DNA from: Peribolospora baueri
Lineage: Eukaryota
DNA: 20,000 nucleotides
NCBI GenBank assembly: GCA_029717555.1
Contig: JAMDHS010000102.1
Location: 49,313 to 69,312 of the forward strand
Direction of reading: 5' to 3'
Positions within the stretch are counted from its first letter, which is position 1. The number at the start of each line of letters is the position of its first letter. The notes beneath the pieces are model-generated. The model was not told the DNA's origin, ran no database searches, and saw nothing but the letters and a program-made list of their open reading frames with translations. Below, piece after piece: positions 1-17,444 of the stretch. The position numbers and the translations under genes were made by a program.

Positions 1-1921
1 TGCTCCATCTGGTCGCCTAATCCCGCCGCTCCACCTAGCCCTCGCGCCCCCGCTTCGCCCGCTTTGGGTCTTCTCAACGTTCCCCCTATGCCCACCTCCA
101 TGCGCCTCCTTCCCCTACCTTTCCCCTCGGCCCATTTCCACCGACACCGCTCCGCCCACTCCTCGTCTCCTTGCCCGCCTAACCCTAACCACTCGCCCTA
201 CACCCGTTCCTACTGGTCCTCCCCTGGCCTCTCCCACGACTCGATACCCCATCTCTCCTCCTCCTCCTCCACTGCCTCCTCTTCTCCTCACCACACCCGT
301 CCCTCTTCTCCCTATTCCCACCGTCGGCCCTGTTTGTCTTCCCCCGGCCCTTCCCATCCATCTCTCCCCACCCGCTCCCACGCTCCCAGCCCCGAGTCTC
401 TGCCCTCGCCCTTTCGTCGCAACAGTGCTAGCTCCCGCGACGACATTCCACCTCACCAGCTGCCTCCGTCCGCACAGACCGCGCCCGCTTCCCAGGCCCT
501 CCCCGGACCTTACCCTCCCCTTGACCTCCAGTACATCTACGGCTGGAGTTCTGATTCTATCCTTCCCCGATCCCGTCCCGATGATGTCCTCAGGCCCACC
601 GACGTCGTTGAGCCGCTGGACGACGACCCAGTCGACTATGATCCGGTCGACTACGGAAATATCTTTCAAGACGCCCTCACCGAGCCTTTGAGGTCCCTCT
701 GGGGCGACCGCGGCCAAGAGTGAGCAGTGAGCCCTTGCCTTCGTCAGCTCGTGTCCAACCCTTTCCCTCACATCCTTTTATCCCTCCAGACTCCGAGTCG
801 CTCTCGAAGCGACATGCCTCAAAGACCGCTTTGACGGAAACGACATCTTCGTCGCTTACCGTCGCAACTATTCCACCATCGTCTGCCGCCTCCATCTGGC
901 GCCTTCCTCTTCGACTGGCCTCTCGCCCCAGAGCGACTCGCACGGCTCCTCCGGCATCCCCGACATCTACCTCAGCCGCAAGATCCGCAACCCGTCTTCG
1001 TCAGGCAGGGTGTCATGGGCCAAGAGCAAGCTGCTCAGCTCGCCCAACTCTGACGAAGACGAACCCAAGATCATGCAGCTCGTCAAAGGATTCAGCGTCG
1101 GCTTGGACGCCTTTGTCCTAGGTCAACGCGACACCGACGGTTCTTTTCGCCGCGAAAAGACGAGGGACAAGAACGTCCCCCTCGTCAGGTACTCTTCCCT
1201 CCGCGGTGAGTCACGCCGCCTCGTCGCCGCCCGTGGGCGTAGCCTACGCTCATCTTCGCTCCTCGGGCTTCCTCCCCCCCTCCGCTCGCCGGTAGAGAAT
1301 GCAGCGCCGCTCCCTCTCGAGACGGAGCCCGTCACTCCGGGAGACGAACCAGGATCCGAGGCAGTGTTCGAGCGGATTCAGTTCGTGAGCATGTCTGCTC
1401 CACTCCAAGTGGCCGTCGGTCGTCCAGCCTACCTGTGCGACGGCTGATCCATGTCGCGTGTCCTCTTCGTTCCGCCTCACAGAAATCGGCTACTCCCGGT
1501 AACGGAAAGAACAGGAAGCAGCAGCTGTGAGTCCCGTGACCTCTTTCCAGAGCTTGTCAGCCTCGACGCTCTCTCACACCTACTCTCGACGATCGCTTCA
1601 TTGCACCGCTTCGTTCGCCGGCAGCAACGCCTACCGTCTCGTTTTGTATGCCCATGTCGCTCATTGGCCTGGCGCTGAAGGAAGCGCGGGCCGCCGCGGC
1701 AGCGGCTTTGCTAGCAGGAAAGCGGGGCCGAGGGCGGATGCGATCGATACCGTGCCCATAGCGTGAGTGTCTCAGTGCTTTGTGCTCCGTGCTCTAGGGA
1801 GAGCGGACGACGTTTCCTAACCCCCCATTTTACTCGCAGTTCCATCGTCTCCAAAGGCATCGTCGTTCGCGGCCGTTCCAGGGGCCAGTATCCGCTCGAC
1901 GGCTTTCGACGTCCCACGTAG
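1..1921 (+). CDS. NDT80/PhoG-family (p53-like fold) transcription factor, 6 exons; 5' end uncertain
   Basis: Exons <1(or ATG 88)-719, 790-1205, 1296-1384, 1483-1526, 1625-1762, 1840-1921. All introns are GT..AG. From ATG 88 the CDS is 1401 nt (466 aa + TAG). The spliced protein has Ndt80-family motifs in the expected order: VAYRRNYSTI, PLVRYSSLRE, FERIQF|KSATPGNGKNRKQQL|NAYRLVLYAHV and SKGIVVRGRSRGQY. The frame is open back to base 1, so the start may lie upstream of the window. Confidence 0.85.
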
Positions 1922-2477: not shown

Positions 2478-4214
2478 TCAAGTCATCTCGGCCAGCATGC
2501 TCTCGAGACGTAACCGCTGCTCGTGTCGATGGAGCTCGTCGATGAGATACTCCAACCCACTCCCGTCGTCCTCTGACCCCTCGAGAACCTTTTCGAGACC
2601 CGAGAGGGAGACGCCGATGCGATGGTCCGTGATACGGTCCTGTTGCCCGGCGGGCGTATGAAGAGAGCGACGGACGGACGAGATCAATCCATCTCCCGTT
2701 GCGTTCCTACACCTTCCTTCCTAACCCCGGAAAGCCCTCCGGACCGGGACCGGGATGCTCACCTGCGCATAATTATACGTCCGTACCTTATCACTCCGAT
2801 CCATCCCCGCCACCTGACTCCTCTTCGCCGCCCGCTTCGACGCCACTTCATCTCGCATTTTACGATCTGCCAGACGCGCGCGCAGGACGGCCCATGCTTT
2901 TGCTCGATTCTGGAGTTGGGCGGAAGGGATGGAGAGGGTGAGGACCGGCATATGTGTGTGTGTGTGGGGGTGTTCACTTACCTGATGCTGCGAGCGCGAG
3001 TCTTGCATCGAGACCGAGATGCCCGTCGGCTCGTGCGTCAGACGCACGGCCGATTCCGTTCGATTGACGTGCTGCAGGAAGAACCAGTAAGCGCGTCGCC
3101 CGCCCGACCATAGACGATGGCGATCGAGTAATGAACCTCACCTGTCCTCCGGCTCCTCGAGACCTCATGACTTCCAGCTTGACCTCCTTGGGGTCGACGT
3201 AGAAATCGTCGTTCTTGCCGTTGCCCGTCTCTTCCGACAACGGAAGGACGACCATGGCGACGGTGGACGTGTGCACCCTGCCCTGCGTCTCCGTCAGCGG
3301 CACGCGCTGGACCCGGTGCACGCCTGCCTCAAACTTGAGCTTGCCGTACGCGCCCTCGCCTTTGACCTCGAGGATGACCTCCTTGAGCGCCTCGCCCCCC
3401 GCGCTCCCTCCTCGAGCCCCTTCGGCGACGGTACGGGAAAGCGCCTCGACGGACCAGTTCCTCGGCTCCGACGCGCACCATCGCGCGTACATGCGCGCCA
3501 GGTCTCCCACAAACAGCGCCGCCTCGTCTCCTCCTACGCCGGCTTTGAGCTCGAGGAGGGCAGAGGAAGAGTCGAGCGAAGAAGGGGCGAGGAGATGTCG
3601 TCGGAACGCCGAGCGCAGGGTCGTCAGTGAATCGCGGAGCGTCTCGGCCTCCTCGGCAGCTAGTGTGCGCATCGAAGCGTCGGGATCGGACTCGGAGAGA
3701 GCGAGCGTGGCCTCGAGTTGCTGAGATCACTTGCCGGCAAGAAAGAGGCGGGCGTCGAGTGAGACGGTGGGCGGACGAACGGAGGGAAGCTCTACAACGG
3801 TCCGCGCTCACCTCCTGCGTATCCTTCCATGCCCTCCAGGACTGATGAAGAGGCTCGAGCTCCTTGACCTGGCGTGCTCGACTTATTTGCTCTGAAGGAC
3901 TGCCGTTTGGCTTTTGCCGACGGACGTGAAGCCAGAGACGTCAGCCGGCTCAGCACTTCCGATGGGACAAAATAAAAGAAAAAGAGAGGCGTCCGGCCTC
4001 TTACCTTGTCCAGTAGACTCGCCCTCTCCTCCATCATGCGGGCCACCAGGGCCACCACCTTGTCGTCCTTCTCCTCTTCAGCGCCCCGCCCGGTCGCCTT
4101 CTTGGCCGCCCAGAGGGACGAGGAGCTGGTCATCCCCCGTCGACAAGACGGGGAGAAAAAGAGAGCTGTGGCACCGCGCCGACATGCATTTCCGGCGGTC
4201 GGGAGGACGTACAT
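2478..4214 (-). CDS. MRF1: Mitochondrial peptide chain release factor 1 (class I, bacterial RF1 type), 6 exons, 428 aa
   Basis: Exons 4214-4005, 3910-3812, 3720-3142, 3071-2982, 2909-2763, 2639-2478, all phase 0. Motifs: [37 protein letters not shown] (PxT of RF1), [18 protein letters not shown] (GGQ), [20 protein letters not shown]. The N-terminus is Arg/Ser-rich and lacks acidic residues, like a mitochondrial presequence. Confidence 0.95.
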
Positions 4215-6890: not shown

Positions 6891-9823
6891 TCATCCGTCA
6901 AGAGGCCTCTCTCCCATCCATCCCACAAAGTCTTGAAATCCGAGTACGGCAGTGACACCGCCTGGGGCAGCAGTCTGTCGTTTCCGGTGTGCGTCCTTGT
7001 CGCGATTACCGGTCTTCTCTCCGTCGTACTCGCCGTAGTCCTCGTCCTCGTCCTCCTCATCCTCTTCCTCTCCGTACTGACGCCTGCTTTTAGATCGATC
7101 TTGCGCACCTCCAGCGACGTCGGCGCCGACACCAGCGATGGGCGCGGCCTGATCACGACCTCCTTTCCCGTCTCTTTCTCCCTCCGCGTCTGTACCAGCG
7201 CTTTCTGAGTCTTCACCGTCAATCCCCGTCCCAGAGGCGAAGCTTGCGCCTCCCGCGCTCATCGACCGAGGCAGACCAGCAGAGCCCGCAGCAGAGGTGA
7301 AGGAGCCGCCCGCAGATCCGCCTCCGCCCACTGCGGTCTCCGCACCAGGTCCAGCGCCATCTCCCGCACCTGAGACGGCGCTCATCTTCCTCCTCCTCTC
7401 GGCCAGCTTCCTTCCCTGCACGCTCAGCTCCTCTCCACCCTCCCTCCAACCGAGGAGCCGCGAGACGATAGAAGCCATATCCGCCTTCTTCTCCACGTCT
7501 GATACCCAGCTGTCCACTGTCCGCTCAAAGTCAGCACGGTTGCGGAAAGGAAGAAGGTAGCCAGCCGTGTGGTGCGGATTCTCGGCCCCACCGGAGACGG
7601 ACTGCTGGTGGTGATGGTGATGATGGTGAGCCGAACCTCCGGCCTGAAGCGAATTCTGCCTAGTCCTCTGCGCCGATCCGGAAGGATCGGGGACGCCCCT
7701 GGATGACGAGGCGTTGGGAACTTGAGCCGAGGCGAGAGCGGCTTGGATCGCTCGTCGTTCTTCCTCAGCCTCTTCCCATACAAGCTCACGAGCGGCTGAG
7801 AAGGTGCGCACGTTGTTGAGCAGAAGTATCGCGCGCAGCGTCGCGTGATCCGGCACCACAAAGCTGGTGGTCGCCCCGTTGCGGCTGTGCCCTTGGCCTC
7901 GACCGTCTGTAGGGATGACGAACGGAATGACATGCCGATGAAGAAGGGTGAGCACGGCCACAGCAGAGGAGAAGGCCGAAGGAGCAAAGATAACTCACGC
8001 GCCCAAATCGGCTCTTCCGCGTTCATAGGCGCACCGTCCTTGTACCCGTTGGAGAGCTCGGCTAGGATAGGAACGTGCTTTGGTGTGCCCAAGTTGGTGT
8101 TGGTGAGGTTCAGGAGGAGCTGAGAGGGGATGGTGCTGATCGCGTTCGGGTTGATGAACCTGACAGGAAGAGCAGAGCGTGTCAGGCCGACGTGACTCCT
8201 AACAACGCGAGAGAAGATCACGGACTCGCTACGCAACCGCACCTTCGGTACAAAACCTGATCGTAAGCCGTCTCGACGGCGCTGTAGTCAGGTCCGTCTC
8301 TGATGACCTTGGAATGGCGCGAGCGCCTCTCCGTGATCGGGTCGCCTCCCAGTCCCATACTGCTCGCGCTCGCCCCGCTGCGAATCTGCCCCATGATGAC
8401 GCTCCGTGGCGGAGCGTTAGGCCCCGCCGCGAAAAGGGCGTTCAGACTTGCGCTAGGCACCTCCTTGGGTGATCCGAAGAAGACGTGGTTCGTCTCCACA
8501 AACTCGAGCGTCGCGCCCGGCCTAAGCACGCGCACGCACTCCTCGATCAGAGGGCCCCACCGGTCCTCCGGGACGCCATCGCCGAGAAAGCGCAGGTGGA
8601 CAAAGTCGAAGCTAGCGTCCGGAAATGGCAGGCCTTCGAGGAAGTTGTTCACTACCCAAGTCACCCGTCTCGCCAGATCCGGATCGGACTCGCGGAGGGG
8701 AGCGAGCGAAGGTTGGATGGGCACAAGGTCCAGCCCCATAAACTCGGAGTGAGGCCACGCCGACGCCGACTCGAGACACCACGCGCCCGTACCCGTGCCT
8801 ACGTCTAGGACGCGGGCGGGTACGACGTCCGGAGAGAAGACGGGCATGCCGTGGGCGTCCTTGACGGCGTCCATTATTGAGTGCATGTTGAGGTCACTAA
8901 GTGCAAGAAATCGAAGAGCGACAAGCGTAAAAAATGTATGCGTGGCGGAGAAGTAAGGGTTCAATCAGCACGCAGCCGCCCGGTCCGACTCTTGGAAGGT
9001 GAACGCACTTCTCCAAGTCCTCCCTTCCGTAACTCCTCCAATACGGCGCCCTCTCTCTCTCGTACCCGTGATACCTCCGAAGCTTGCTCGACTTTGTCCT
9101 TCTGTACAAGAAATAGTCCTCTTTCTCCCACCTCCTCGAGCGCTGCTGGCTTTCCTTGCTCCCGTCGGTCTTGGCGCCCCCGCCTTCGGCCTCAGACGTG
9201 GCGCTCGCCATGGCGTTGGATATTGAAGCGGCACCGAAGAGAAACGACGAGCTGATGCCTCCCGTTCCCGCGAACCTGGATCCATGCAAGGCGGGAAAAG
9301 ATGGCTCGACATCAGAGAGCGCGATGCCTTGGTCTCCTCCTCTGGAGGACGCCTCCTGTCGAAGGAGACTACGTCGGTCCGGCGGAGGCGTGCAGAAGAT
9401 GTACCCTTCCGAGGCGTACAGGTGGCTCTGAGGAGGTTGCTGGAGATTGGGGGGCAGAGGCATGGTGGGAGGCCACGACGGAGAGGACGATGATTGGGGC
9501 CGACTACCGGGAGGCGATGGCGACGGGGCACCCGATTGCGGGGCCGCCCCGGACTTGCGGCCCTTCTTGTCTAGGCCGGCAGCGGAGGCCTTGGAGACCG
9601 AGGACGCGGGAGAGGTGGAGGCTGGAGTGGACAGCCATGGCGGCGGAATGAGACCGAGACGGTAAGGGAGGGGAAGCGTCTGCCAGCGCTCATCGAGTGC
9701 CTTGGAGCTGTCGCCGAGTCCACCGCCGTGACCATCTGCGCTCGGGCGCTTGGAGCCGGTCGTGGAAGAAGGATGTTCGTTGGAGGTTGCTGCTGGCAAG
9801 CCCCTCGTCGAAGGGGTCGTCAT
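6891..9823 (-). CDS. Class I SAM-dependent methyltransferase-domain protein with long low-complexity arms, 4 exons, 881 aa
   Basis: Exons 9823-9009, 8896-8243, 8159-7999, 7906-6891 (2646 nt, in frame). SAM motif I RVLDVGTGTGAW, motif II region FMGLDLVPIQ, NFLEGLPFPDASFDFVH, RVLRPGATLEFVE. ATG 9823 is the first ATG downstream of the putative TATA box. Confidence 0.85.
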
Positions 9824-10302
9824 CGTCGTCCGAGCCCTTCGAGACGGGCCAGACGGGACGAGACGGCGATGAGGGCGATTTGATCGGCAATGATCGGAGC
9901 GAGGAGCGAAGTGCCGCCCAGTCGAGCGCAGAAAGAGAAGCGAAGTAGGAGAAGCGCTAAGAAGACGGGAAGAAAGAAAAGGCGGACGAGAAGAAATGCG
10001 AAGAAGAGACAGAGGGGCGGGGTATCGGGTTGCTGGTTGGAGGGGGGCCGGTGAGCCGGGGGGGGGTGGTATATGCGCCTCTGGAGCGCGTAGGTGGGCG
10101 GCGAGCCGGCGGGTAAGCGAGAGGGGAGGATATGGAGTGCGAGACGAAGGCAGCTGGCAAACCAAACCAGACGAGGCCCTTCTCGCTGGGTGACGAGATG
10201 AAGATGAGCTGTCGTCGACGTTGTCGTCGTCGTCGTCGGCGGTGACGGGGCCTCTTTTTCGTTTGTCCCCTCTTGTGGAACCTGAGGCTGAACGAGGATT
10301 GA

Positions 10303-10309
10303 TTATATA
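10303..10309 (-). promoter_or_regulatory. Putative TATA box for the methyltransferase gene
   Basis: TATATAA on the minus strand in an otherwise GC-rich region about 480 nt upstream of ATG 9823, followed by a pyrimidine-rich leader with no ATG. Confidence 0.4.
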
Positions 10310-10642
10310 ACCCTAACCGCTCCCTCGCCTTCCCACAGCACATCGTCCACCTTCCCTTTCCCTGTCCCTGTGTCCTCGTTCTCGTCTTCCCGATCCACCA
10401 AGCGCTCGCCAGTGCACCATGGAAAACGTAATGGGGCCAGAGGAAGCGGTGCACAGGTGCGAGTGCCGCTATTTTCCGACACCTAACCTCCCCCATGGCG
10501 TCCCGTCTTTCCTTTTGGACCACGAATCGAGCGATCGATCTCGCACATCCTGAACAAATCCTCAAATCCCTAGTAGGCAGCCATAGAAACAAAGAGCGAG
10601 ATGTAAACAGACAGCGTAGTCGTACGATTCCGCCCCATTCCT

Positions 10643-13178: not shown

Positions 13179-14236
<1,058 letters not shown>

Positions 14237-15932: not shown

Positions 15933-17056
15933 ATGGATGGATGGATTAATCCGCTTATCAAGTCCGTATACAGGTCGTGGACAGCCTAGAGGGAATATAA
16001 AGAGACGCAACAGCGGGAAGGGTTTACTGCGGTAGGGCGACTGCGGTAGCCGTCGCCAGCCGACGGCGGGTGTAAAAAAGGGGGGAAACAGAGAAGTGGA
16101 AGGTATCTACCAGAGGCGACACGTAGGAGTCGGCCCTGTTCGAGCTAGGCAAGAGGGACACTTCAGGACTCAAAACGTCTGTACGGCATACCCCAAAATG
16201 GAGATCGCAGGGGAGCGCAAATTGGTGTTGGTGTCGCAGGCAGGGTCGCCACGGAGTGAGTGGGCAATCGGTGCGAGGGAGGTATTGCAGCTCCTAGGCG
16301 GCATCGGTGATGAAGCGGGCGCCTGACCCTTCTCCAAAGGAGAGGAGAAAGCGGCCAGTGTCTCTGAGGAACCGGGCCGTCAAGGGAAGGGCGAGGGGAT
16401 CGAAGAGGAGTGTGTGTAGGTCCTGGGTGGGGAGTCGGCGCGCAGCGAGGGATTCTCTAAGGCGACGGCGATGTTCTCGCCACCTGGGGCAGAAGAGGAG
16501 AAAGTGCGCTACAGTCTCAGTTCTCTGGCAGGAGGGACACATGTCAGAATCGGCGGCCTTGACTCTGTGCAGGTAGCTGCGTAGAGGACAGTGCCCAGAG
16601 CGAAGCTGGACGATGAGAGCGGCCGCGCCCCTTCCCAGGCGGGCTAGCGCGTCAAGGGAGTCCTCAGAGGAAGCGTCGCGGCGGAGGTGAGCGTGCCACC
16701 CTCCGGCCGTTTCGTTGCGCAGGCCGTAGGACGGTCCTGGTCTCTTGGCAGAGGCGACTTGCGAACGCATCATCTTGGCGGCCGCTGGAGAGCGTGGAAG
16801 ACTCCGCAGGAGATCGTTGAGGGCCGCGTCCCAGGGTCCGGTGTTTTCCCCGGGCCTCCCAGCCGCCGCCGCCTTGGCGAGGGCATCGGCGAGCTCATTG
16901 CCGGCGACATCGGAGTATCCAGGGCACCAGCGTGCGTAGATTTTGACTTTGTATTGGGAGCGGAGAAGTAGAGCCGAACGGTGGATGGCCATGAGGAGGG
17001 TTTGACCGGCGCGACATCTGGGGGGCCCGTCTAGGACACGGAGAACTGCCTGGTTG
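15933..17056 (-). mobile_element. 3' end of a Tad1-like non-LTR retrotransposon (LINE): partial RNase H, C-terminal zinc finger, 3' UTR and (ATCC)n tail
   Basis: The reading frame from 17055 to the stop at 16294 gives NQAVLR...GQ...RWCPGYSDVAGNELADALAK (RNase H C-terminal half), then QLRSGHCPLRSYLHR...CPSCQRTETVAHFLLFCPRW (Cx2Cx7Hx4C). A pyrimidine-rich 3' UTR ends in GCGGATTA(ATCC)3AT at 15946-15933. The tail and 3' boundary are inferred. Confidence 0.88.
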
Positions 17057-17444
17057 TGTCAGGGAGGACTTACCTACTCAGTCGGGTCACGAGCGAAGGA
17101 CGCAGGACGGAATGGAGGTCCACCGGAAGTCGAGGCAAAGCAAGGAGCAGGCAAGTCGGGTACAGGGATGAGGACAGGAACGAGGGTGGGGCGGAGGCTG
17201 GGGCTGATGCTGGACGGGGAACTCTGGAGGAAACCTGAGCGGTGACAAAAGTATTCTTAGCTTGGGGAGGAAAGATGCGGACGCCCTGTCGGGCTCTCTT
17301 TATATACACGTTCATGAACCGGTGCAGCACCGTAGCTCTTATGTTCTACCCTTGCAACGCCACAGCTCCTATGTTCCAACCTCGCAACGTCACAGCTCCT
17401 TTGTTCGAGCCTATGAGCACGAGGTTCTGCGGAGCTTTGTGACA
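17057..17444 (-). mobile_element. 3' LTR (388 bp) of a Ty3/Gypsy chromovirus
   Basis: Bounded by perfect 5-bp terminal inverted repeats TGTCA (17057) and TGACA (17444). On the minus strand it is preceded by a PPT-like GGGGGTAT and lies 12 nt after the chromodomain ORF stop. Internal TATATAAA at 17306-17299 (-). The second LTR is not seen in the window. Confidence 0.8.
17324..17411. repeat. Three imperfect 30-bp tandem repeats in the LTR U3 region
   Basis: Units start at 17324 (gcagcaccgtagctcttatgttctaccctt), 17354 (gcaacgccacagctcctatgttccaacctc) and 17384 (gcaacgtcacagctcctttgttcgagcc). Confidence 0.85.

Follow-up and report, generated by a model that had tools for sequence, protein, structure and literature searches.

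Evidence for a divergent, multi-intron NDT80/PhoG-family gene in a probable basidiomycete

Introduction

Can a gene for a DNA-binding protein lie in a stretch of DNA in which no single open reading frame (ORF) reveals it? This question is raised by positions 1 to 1921 of a 20,000-nucleotide stretch of Peribolospora baueri contig JAMDHS010000102.1 (assembly GCA_029717555.1, positions 49,313 to 69,312 of the forward strand), which is called the window throughout. A sequence-only reading of the window had proposed that these positions encode, once five introns are removed, a divergent basidiomycete member of the NDT80/PhoG/VIB-1 family. Our analysis leads to a similar answer: with a probability of about 0.85, positions 1 to 1921 on the plus strand contain all or the greater part of a functional nuclear gene with six or more exons that encodes an NDT80/PhoG-family DNA-binding protein.

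The NDT80/PhoG domain is a p53-like, sequence-specific DNA-binding domain with an immunoglobulin (Ig) fold. Ascomycete Ndt80-like factors act as regulators of meiosis and sporulation, of starvation responses and cell death, and of biofilm formation. The known distribution among basidiomycetes is much sparser. Table 5 of one survey gives counts of zero Ndt80-like genes for Cryptococcus, Coprinus (Coprinopsis), Phanerochaete, Postia, and Puccinia and of one for Ustilago maydis (PMC3821154), and most basidiomycetes are described elsewhere as apparently lacking the family (PMC4683649). Deletion of the U. maydis member, Unh1, is reported to affect teliospore formation, maturation, and pigmentation (PMC6462984, citing Doyle et al. 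2016). A literature search for such genes in further basidiomycetes listed no paper that uses the term Ndt80-like, and a search for the family motifs brought up only papers on a connexin peptide.

Results

Six exons join into one open reading frame

When five GT-AG introns were removed from the first 1,921 nucleotides, the spliced frame was 1488 nucleotides (495 codons) long, was open throughout in frame 0, and ended at a TAG at 1919-1921. The donors of introns 1 to 5 read GTGAGC, GTGAGT, GTGAGC, GTGAGT, and GTGAGT, and all five acceptors end in AG. The spliced translation carries YRRNY (857-871), FERIQF followed by KSATPGNGKNRKQQ (1367-1384 joined to 1483-1524), RLVLYAHV, and VVRGRS (1862-1879). 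The proposal that joining five introns would bring all four quoted motifs into one frame was therefore borne out. It had also been claimed that no single ORF reveals the gene, and this agrees with the window's ORF list: the whole gene is not visible in any single ORF of the first 1.9 kb. The gene model is as follows.

1..719, plus strand: exon 1; Ser/Pro-rich N-terminal region, with the first strand block of the DNA-binding domain from nucleotide 679 (codon 227)
720..789, plus strand: intron 1; 70 nucleotides, GTGAGC...CTCCAG
790..1205, plus strand: exon 2; YRRNY block, then about 110 residues without detectable family similarity
1206..1295, plus strand: intron 2, probable only; 90 nucleotides, GTGAGT...CGGTAG, G+C fraction 0.72, donor consensus like that of the other four
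1296..1384, plus strand: exon 3; ends in FERIQF (1367-1384)
1385..1482, plus strand: intron 3; 98 nucleotides, GTGAGC...TCACAG
1483..1526, plus strand: exon 4; 44 nucleotides, encodes KSATPGNGKNRKQQ, which extends FERIQF into the family's FK.AT.NNGK block
1527..1624, plus strand: intron 4; 98 nucleotides, GTGAGT...CGGCAG
1625..1762, plus strand: exon 5; NAYRLVLYAHV, a 28-residue Gly/Arg-rich insert, and DTVPIA; end of profile block 2 and start of block 3
1763..1839, plus strand: intron 5; 77 nucleotides, GTGAGT...TCGCAG, with a branch-point-like CTAAC 19 nucleotides before the acceptor
1840..1921, plus strand: exon 6; encodes SIVSKGIVVRGRSRGQY (VVRGRS at 1862-1879), 9 further residues, and the stop TAG at 1919-1921

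Since frame 0 is already open at window base 1, the counts of six exons and 495 codons are lower limits, and the start could lie at the in-frame ATGs at 88-90 or 100-102 or upstream of the window. Introns 3, 4, and 5 shift the frame. Intron 2 contains no stop and keeps the frame, such that 791-1384 forms one continuous genomic ORF, and the sequence alone therefore does not force its removal. At 70 to 98 nucleotides, the introns of the gene are similar in length to those of the TPI gene of the same window (71 to 91 nucleotides, plus one short in-frame intron).

The composition of the spliced gene supports the model frame. G and C make up 71% of third codon positions, where C alone accounts for 52% and A for 8%. 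A codon table was compiled from the Pfam-matched genes in the rest of the window (648 codons); scored with it, the model frame ranked first of the three frames in all six exons. For exon 2, the model frame scored +37 bits and the other two frames scored -45 and -49 bits.

Other ORFs and a possible further exon in this region were considered and rejected. The minus-strand ORFs at 115-777, 1711-2112, and 2113-2706 and the plus-strand ORFs at 2-691 and 1955-2545 had no Pfam match at an expect value (E) of ≤1, and the ORF at 1798-2259 had only a chance-level match to PRIMA1 (E = 0.67). As for a seventh exon, a search with 47 reference tails (from the family members described below) gave 14 high-scoring segment pairs (HSPs) below nucleotide 3000 at E ≤10; the best had an E of 0.39 and lay inside the gene on the opposite strand. 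Codon-usage scores over 1922-2300 were negative in all three frames. Separately, a TCC-rich stretch of 35 nucleotides in exon 1 (254-288), which encodes a serine run, matches a second contig with 5 mismatches in every run compared and is a low-complexity repeat that recurs at another locus.

The spliced product scores with the NDT80/PhoG family

A reference set was assembled with a degenerate DNA pattern for the family motif W-T-C-Y-R-R-N-Y-F, which matched at least 118 loci in metagenome contigs. In 65 of these 118 loci the motif lay in a long ORF, with 90 or more residues preceding it and 300 or more following it, and the other 53 were dropped. A k-mer filter then removed 18 near-duplicates, leaving 47 references. 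All 47 matched Pfam NDT80_PhoG over essentially the entire profile, with scores of 96.8 to 169.5 bits against a cut-off of 27. A profile built from the 47 members recovered yeast Ndt80 (1mnn_A) at an E of 9.4e-32 and MYRF at an E of 8.6e-11.

Against this 47-member hidden Markov model (HMM), the spliced protein scored 57.1 bits (E = 1e-19 for one sequence). The score came from three collinear blocks.

Profile block 1: HMM positions 13-68, codons 227-282, 13.0 bits
Profile block 2: HMM positions 166-207, codons 395-435, 28.5 bits
Profile block 3: HMM positions 214-236, codons 464-486, 11.3 bits

With the same HMM, the part from FERIQF to the end scored 43.2 bits and the contiguous segment 791-1384 scored 15.3 bits. 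None of 1000 shuffled versions of the spliced protein exceeded 2.7 bits, and the reversed sequence scored -2.6 bits. This result upholds the view that the motifs are signatures of the NDT80/PhoG/VIB-1 domain. Searching with tblastn, the spliced domain found single HSPs in 74 of the 118 loci. In the 12 best, the HSPs scored 52 to 57 bits at 26 to 28% identity and ran from query residues 3-18 to 267-270 of 276. Of 48 alignment columns with at least 90% conservation among the references, the gene has the identical residue in 29.

Contiguous pieces of the locus were also compared with Pfam itself. NDT80_PhoG (cut-off, 27 bits) matched exon 2 with 12.2 bits (E = 0.22) and 791-1384 with 14.1 bits. 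It was the sole family matched by the unspliced ORF at 731-1444, which scored 15.3 bits (E = 0.025) over profile positions 2-124 of 180. The spliced protein would be expected to pass PF05224. The three nearest ESM Atlas clusters all carry PF05224 (scores of 0.88, 0.84, and 0.80), which under the rules of that tool counts as a lead only. Taken together, these comparisons support the assignment of the spliced product, by its sequence, to the NDT80/PhoG DNA-binding family.

The reference search also bears on the family at large. One nine-residue motif pattern retrieved at least 118 Ndt80-like loci from public metagenome contigs, and some of these loci sit on contigs of 100 to 600 kb that resemble pieces of fungal genomes.

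Family homology crosses the splice junctions

A spliced model invites the objection that it is an artifact, with splice sites picked to create the motifs at a locus that holds no Ndt80-like gene. The junctions were indeed originally chosen by eye, and the contiguous pieces all fall below the Pfam threshold. We therefore varied each intron over all nearby GT-AG pairs that kept the frame open and rescored the spliced protein against the family profile. The junction of intron 1 was the best of 3 open choices (57.1 versus 53.2 and 52.7 bits), that of intron 3 the best of 29 (57.1 versus 42.4 bits for the next), that of intron 4 the best of 5 (57.1 versus 54.8 bits), and that of intron 5 the best of 6 (57.1 versus 51.8 bits). 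The blocks matched by the profile cross the junctions of these same introns, 1, 3, 4, and 5. Block 2 (HMM positions 166-207, 28.5 bits) is made of exons 3, 4, and 5 joined.

The need for an exact three-exon join in block 2 and the optimality of the model junctions at four introns argue against an artifact. So does the behavior of the unspliced locus. When 337 window ORFs of at least 40 amino acids were scored against the profile, the top two (17.3 and 10.7 bits) were pieces of this gene in collinear order, and the next scored 6.0 bits. Divergence from a related organism, given below, also tracks the exon/intron boundaries. We consider an artifact extremely improbable. The comparisons instead indicate that this is a real multi-intron gene whose exon structure is shown, by homology, for four of its five junctions.

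Intron 2 is the remaining junction. The profile score does not discriminate here: it was 57.1 bits with the intron removed and 56.8 bits with it retained, and it ranged from 46.1 to 60.6 bits over 46 open alternatives. Of the proposed six exons and five junctions, then, four junctions are backed by homology, whereas intron 2 is left undiscriminated and six exons are only a minimum.

A gene elsewhere in the window is informative about introns of this kind. The TPI gene (13188-14236, minus strand, ATG at 14236) requires three introns of 71, 80, and 91 nucleotides. At about 13990-14055 it also contains an in-frame, stop-free GTGAGT...CAG segment, and the TPI profile score climbs from 409.3 to 421.4 bits when the 21 residues concerned are skipped. 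This gain implies that the genome has short in-frame introns that an ORF-based reading translates through. The TPI segment is probably a precedent for the in-frame intron 2 of the Ndt80-like gene.

Substitutions in a related organism follow the reading frame

The stretch occurs in two DNA runs of organism A and two of a related organism (organism B), and no RNA run was listed for positions 1-2300. A contig of organism B spans positions 1-2300 with 71 substitutions, 53 gap letters, and 20 indel rows. The analysis covers 40 of the 71 substitutions, all at or before nucleotide 1144, and 12 of the 20 indel rows. Among the 32 exonic substitutions listed, 21 change the third codon base, every one of them synonymously (binomial P = 1.9e-4). 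In exon 1 alone, the third-position count is 19 of 27. From nucleotide 300 on, in exons 1 and 2, it is 19 of 26, and all 19 are synonymous. Exon 2 has only 5 listed substitutions over nucleotides 790-1144.

The intron behaves differently from the exons around it. Intron 1 carries 8 substitutions in 70 nucleotides (11.4%), versus 32 in 1074 exonic nucleotides (3.0%) (Fisher P = 0.002). None of the 12 listed indel rows is exonic; 8 are in intron 1, 1 is in intron 3, 1 is in intron 4, and 2 lie after the stop. The two in introns 3 and 4 are organism B deletions of 2 nucleotides at 1458 and of 1 nucleotide at 1535, respectively. This pattern, as read from the aligned sequences, shows purifying selection on the reading frame of the gene.

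The minus-strand ORF at 115-777 was reconsidered as a coding sequence in the light of these substitutions and was rejected. The excess at position 3 of the plus-strand frame falls at its own codon position 1, a pattern unfit for coding.

Past the stop, the poly-C tract at 2080-2103 differs between organisms A and B by deletions of 4 nucleotides (at 2080) and 7 nucleotides (at 2089). In one run, a further contig matches 2089-2106, which covers part of the tract.

Two of three major-groove arginines align with the gene

In yeast Ndt80, R111, R177, and R254 are described as major-groove contacts (PMC5473870). The 1mnn_A chain has 340 residues, and chain positions were taken as residue numbers. 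Aligning the profile to this chain places R111 in YKRNYF, R177 in KRDKGP, and R254 in YERVQF. The equivalent of R111 in the gene is the second arginine of YRRNY (nucleotides 863-865), and that of R254 is the arginine of FERIQF (nucleotides 1373-1375). Each lies inside a significant block. By this alignment, two of the three major-groove arginines of Ndt80, R111 and R254, are kept in the gene.

As for R177, two MAFFT alignments placed it opposite the arginine that closes exon 2 (SSLR|E), in a region to which HMMER gives no significant score. Two wider pairings of this region were tried, and neither is established. A by-eye pairing of KGFSVGLDAFV...EKTRDKNVP with the family's FA.SISA...KRDKGP gets no support from HMMER (0.5 bits), and MAFFT instead pairs LVRYSSLR|E with LVQHTPKRD.

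These residues suggest how the protein might work. The domain (codons 227-486, nucleotides 679-1891) would fold as an Ndt80 beta-sandwich and would contact the major groove through the R111-like arginine of YRRNY and the R254-like arginine of FERIQF. With only 9 residues following the domain, the N-terminal region or a partner protein would have to supply any activating or regulatory function. By analogy with characterized members, one might guess that sexual development or sporulation, or else nutrient-stress control, is the likeliest role.

The gene departs from typical members in length and sequence

The protein ends 9 residues past the domain, with the stop 9 codons after the last conserved tyrosine. 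In contrast, all 47 reference ORFs run on for 146 to 344 residues past the domain (median, 183). The 47 reference tails found nothing downstream of the stop, the best hit (E = 0.39) being located elsewhere. A long C-terminal region, which is usual in the family though not defining, thus appears to be absent from this gene. At the other end, the region before the domain is about 200 to 226 residues long and Ser/Pro-rich, and the references have 92 to 316 residues before the domain.

Within the domain, alignment with the references implies inserts of about 54 and 28 residues. Removal of the putative 54-residue insert shifts the profile total merely from 57.1 to 57.4 bits. The W-T-C that precedes YRRNY in the references is F-V-A in the gene, and RGRSP is RGRSR. 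A scan of metagenomes with exon 2 peptides gave 245 pattern matches, of which tblastn confirmed none. By sequence, the gene would be an unusually divergent, C-terminally minimal addition to the known NDT80/PhoG family.

Such departures could also be those of a decaying or nonfunctional Ndt80-like relic with little or no transcription or with DNA binding lost. Similarity in the middle of the domain has fallen below detection, 19 of the 48 conserved columns have changed, and the C-terminal region (at least 146 residues in every reference) is missing. Against decay, the frame is intact over six exons with five consensus introns, 21 of the 32 listed exonic substitutions are synonymous, exon 2 shows the lowest divergence seen, and no listed indel is exonic. 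Also retained are the RGRS block and the counterparts of R111 and R254. We regard a relic as improbable and a functional NDT80/PhoG-family gene as the better account of the locus.

Several observations weigh against the family assignment

The assignment of the gene to the NDT80/PhoG family has to be weighed against a number of results, the first of which concern Pfam. The contiguous pieces score 12.2 to 15.3 bits, all below the threshold of 27 bits. Exons 3, 5, and 6 and the 21-residue stretch ending in exon 4 match nothing in Pfam on their own at E ≤10, and exon 6 extended upstream likewise has no match at that cut-off. The reference profile, in turn, is custom-built, and its members were chosen by a motif that overlaps YRRNY, which favors block 1. 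Blocks 2 and 3, which are independent of that choice, supply 40 of the 57 bits.

Protein searches found no relatives at the thresholds used. The segment 791-1384 had no match at E ≤0.001 in an exhaustive phmmer search of 1.84 billion representative proteins. In word-indexed searches of longer proteins, exon 2 drew 404 candidates, none of them at E ≤0.01, and 791-1384 drew 4415 candidates, none of them at E ≤10. A phmmer search of PDB with the unspliced ORF returned no match at E ≤10. The absence of any match for the unspliced ORF among the 1.84 billion representatives, together with its Pfam score below the cut-off, is also what a divergent member would give, and that description of the gene holds.

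The domain itself is matched unevenly. Profile positions from about 69 to 165, the middle third of the domain, have no significant match, and a 60-residue segment from this region scored 0.5 bits versus up to 5.1 bits for its shuffles (649 of 1000 shuffles were given a score). Because the region includes the R177 loop, an equivalent of R177 is not placed. The gene departs from the references at 19 of the 48 highly conserved columns, among them the proline of RGRSP, replaced here by arginine. The selection analysis, for its part, covers substitutions up to nucleotide 1144, which lie in exons 1 and 2 and intron 1.

Structure prediction was applied to the first two thirds of the domain (791-1384, with intron 2 read through). 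A single-sequence AlphaFold2 model had a predicted local distance difference test score (pLDDT) of only 36.8. An alignment-guided model reached a pLDDT of 66.4 and a predicted template modeling score (pTM) of 0.58, values that lean on the family alignment. With this model, the top 5 Foldseek matches were all Ndt80, at an E of 0.15 or worse. A VIA-align search of 48,161 chains placed Ndt80 and MYRF in the top 4 ranks (Z = 5.6 to 4.1; next, 3.8), the best match being Ndt80 with a root mean square deviation of 4.1 over 122 residues (Z = 5.6) for this partial model. Both searches are weak and depend on the alignment. The comparison of a predicted structure with Ndt80, which had been proposed as a check, gives Ndt80 as the top match, but the similarity is weak (E = 0.15, Z = 5.6), covers part of the domain, and is alignment dependent.

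TPI points to a probable basidiomycete host that lacks close annotated relatives

The lineage of the host was approached through TPI in a window of 59% GC. The sequencing runs containing the locus add up to about 23 million letters. All named matches above the first ascomycete (rank 23) were basidiomycetes, among them Rhizoctonia, Ceratobasidium, Violaceomyces, Malassezia, and Ceraceosorus. Identity to the best matches was at most 57% for the ORF piece and 71% for the spliced TPI. The host's own TPI was not found in the protein collection searched, so the host genome is apparently absent from that collection.

A TPI tree was built from 36 sequences; Pucciniomycotina and Taphrinomycotina were absent among the 120 matches listed. 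Neither the supported clades of Pezizomycotina (99/95), Ustilaginomycotina (99/95), and Tremellomycetes (98/96) nor a fully supported trio of Agaricomycetes included the window TPI. It lay in an unresolved backbone polytomy together with a long-branch budding yeast, and the five rows nearest to it were all basidiomycetes. These sequence comparisons make a basidiomycete host probable, one that lacks any close annotated relative. The sequence-only reading had taken the host to be a basidiomycete and had named TPI as the check; the named top matches and the position outside Pezizomycotina agree with it, but the window TPI belongs to no supported clade.

This placement bears on how unusual the gene is. 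The family call may be right and the gene still phylogenetically ordinary, either an Unh1 orthologue in a lineage related to Ustilago or a gene of a host group where such factors are commonplace, for example the early-diverging ascomycetes. Among the best TPI matches are Ustilaginomycotina (Violaceomyces, Malassezia, Ceraceosorus, Acaromyces, and Kalmanozyma), and U. maydis is listed with one Ndt80-like gene (PMC3821154, Table 5). The TPI sits in the polytomy with the budding yeast, in a tree without Taphrinomycotina or Pucciniomycotina. On the other hand, it lies outside the supported Ustilaginomycotina and Pezizomycotina clades (99/95 for each), its best identity of 71% reveals no close annotated relative, and word-indexed and exhaustive searches with the first two thirds of the domain matched no protein at stringent thresholds, which speaks against a near relative of Unh1 type. 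An ordinary case of either kind is a possible explanation that we consider somewhat unlikely.

A bolder proposal is that the gene represents a cryptic, fast-evolving basidiomycete Ndt80 lineage, in which small exons (one of 44 nucleotides) leave fragmentary models under the Pfam threshold and the factor is minimal, ending at its domain. We hold this proposal to be doubtful. If it were true, the family's reported absence from most basidiomycetes would stem in part from artifacts of gene calling and detection. A member in another basidiomycete lineage, if confirmed, would be a data point on loss and retention of the family, and it would mean that small exons are able to conceal the domain from domain-based counts. 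A naturally minimal protein, made of a low-complexity N terminus and the domain, could serve as a probe for the role of the C-terminal region in other members. If the host is near Ustilago or is not a basidiomycete, the gene is merely one further member of the family.

Likenesses to and differences from known members

The NDT80/PhoG-family gene proposed here resembles yeast Ndt80 (1MNN, 2ETW) in the collinear blocks YKRNYF/YRRNY, YERVQF/FERIQF, and IIRGRSP..Y/VVRGRS..Y. It differs in that the R177-bearing loop HT.KRDKGPQ has no significant counterpart and in that the protein stops 9 residues past the domain, where Ndt80 has a long C-terminal region. The XprG/VIB-1/NdtA-type factors of filamentous fungi were represented by the 47 unnamed metagenomic ORFs, which the gene resembles at 57.1 bits and, in the 12 best loci, at 26 to 28% identity. 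Unlike these references, which were selected for a domain in one ORF, the gene has its domain cut by 5 introns.

Like Unh1 of U. maydis, the gene would encode an Ndt80-like factor in a probable basidiomycete. In contrast to the host of Unh1, the window host is placed by its TPI outside the sampled Ustilaginomycotina clade. MYRF/MrfA (5H5P, 5YHU, 5ZHU) shares the Pfam family and the predicted fold class of the gene product and held ranks 3 and 4 in the structure search (Z = 5.0 and 4.1). MYRF is described as a trimer that is tethered to the membrane, cleaves itself, and carries a C-terminal ICA domain (PMC5473870). Unlike in MYRF, nothing ICA-like follows the domain in the product of the gene.

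Gene neighborhood

The neighbors of the gene are ordinary eukaryotic housekeeping genes, namely, those for a mitochondrial release factor, RNase P p30, a methyltransferase, SPC12, and TPI. The peptide chain release factor gene of mitochondrial type, at 2721-3940 on the minus strand (PCRF, E = 5.8e-45), runs toward the 3' end of the Ndt80-like gene, with several hundred C/T-rich bases in between.

The window contained no tRNA and no Rfam family in the searches for RNA genes. Two minus-strand ORFs, at 6894-7994 (367 residues) and 8900-10312 (471 residues), match no Pfam family, and the first has no usable ESM Atlas neighbor; they may be lineage-specific or low-complexity proteins, or they may not be genes. 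At 16297-17058 on the minus strand, weak matches to zf-RVT (E = 0.0014) and RNase H (E = 0.0067) probably mark a fragment of a non-LTR (long terminal repeat) retrotransposon.

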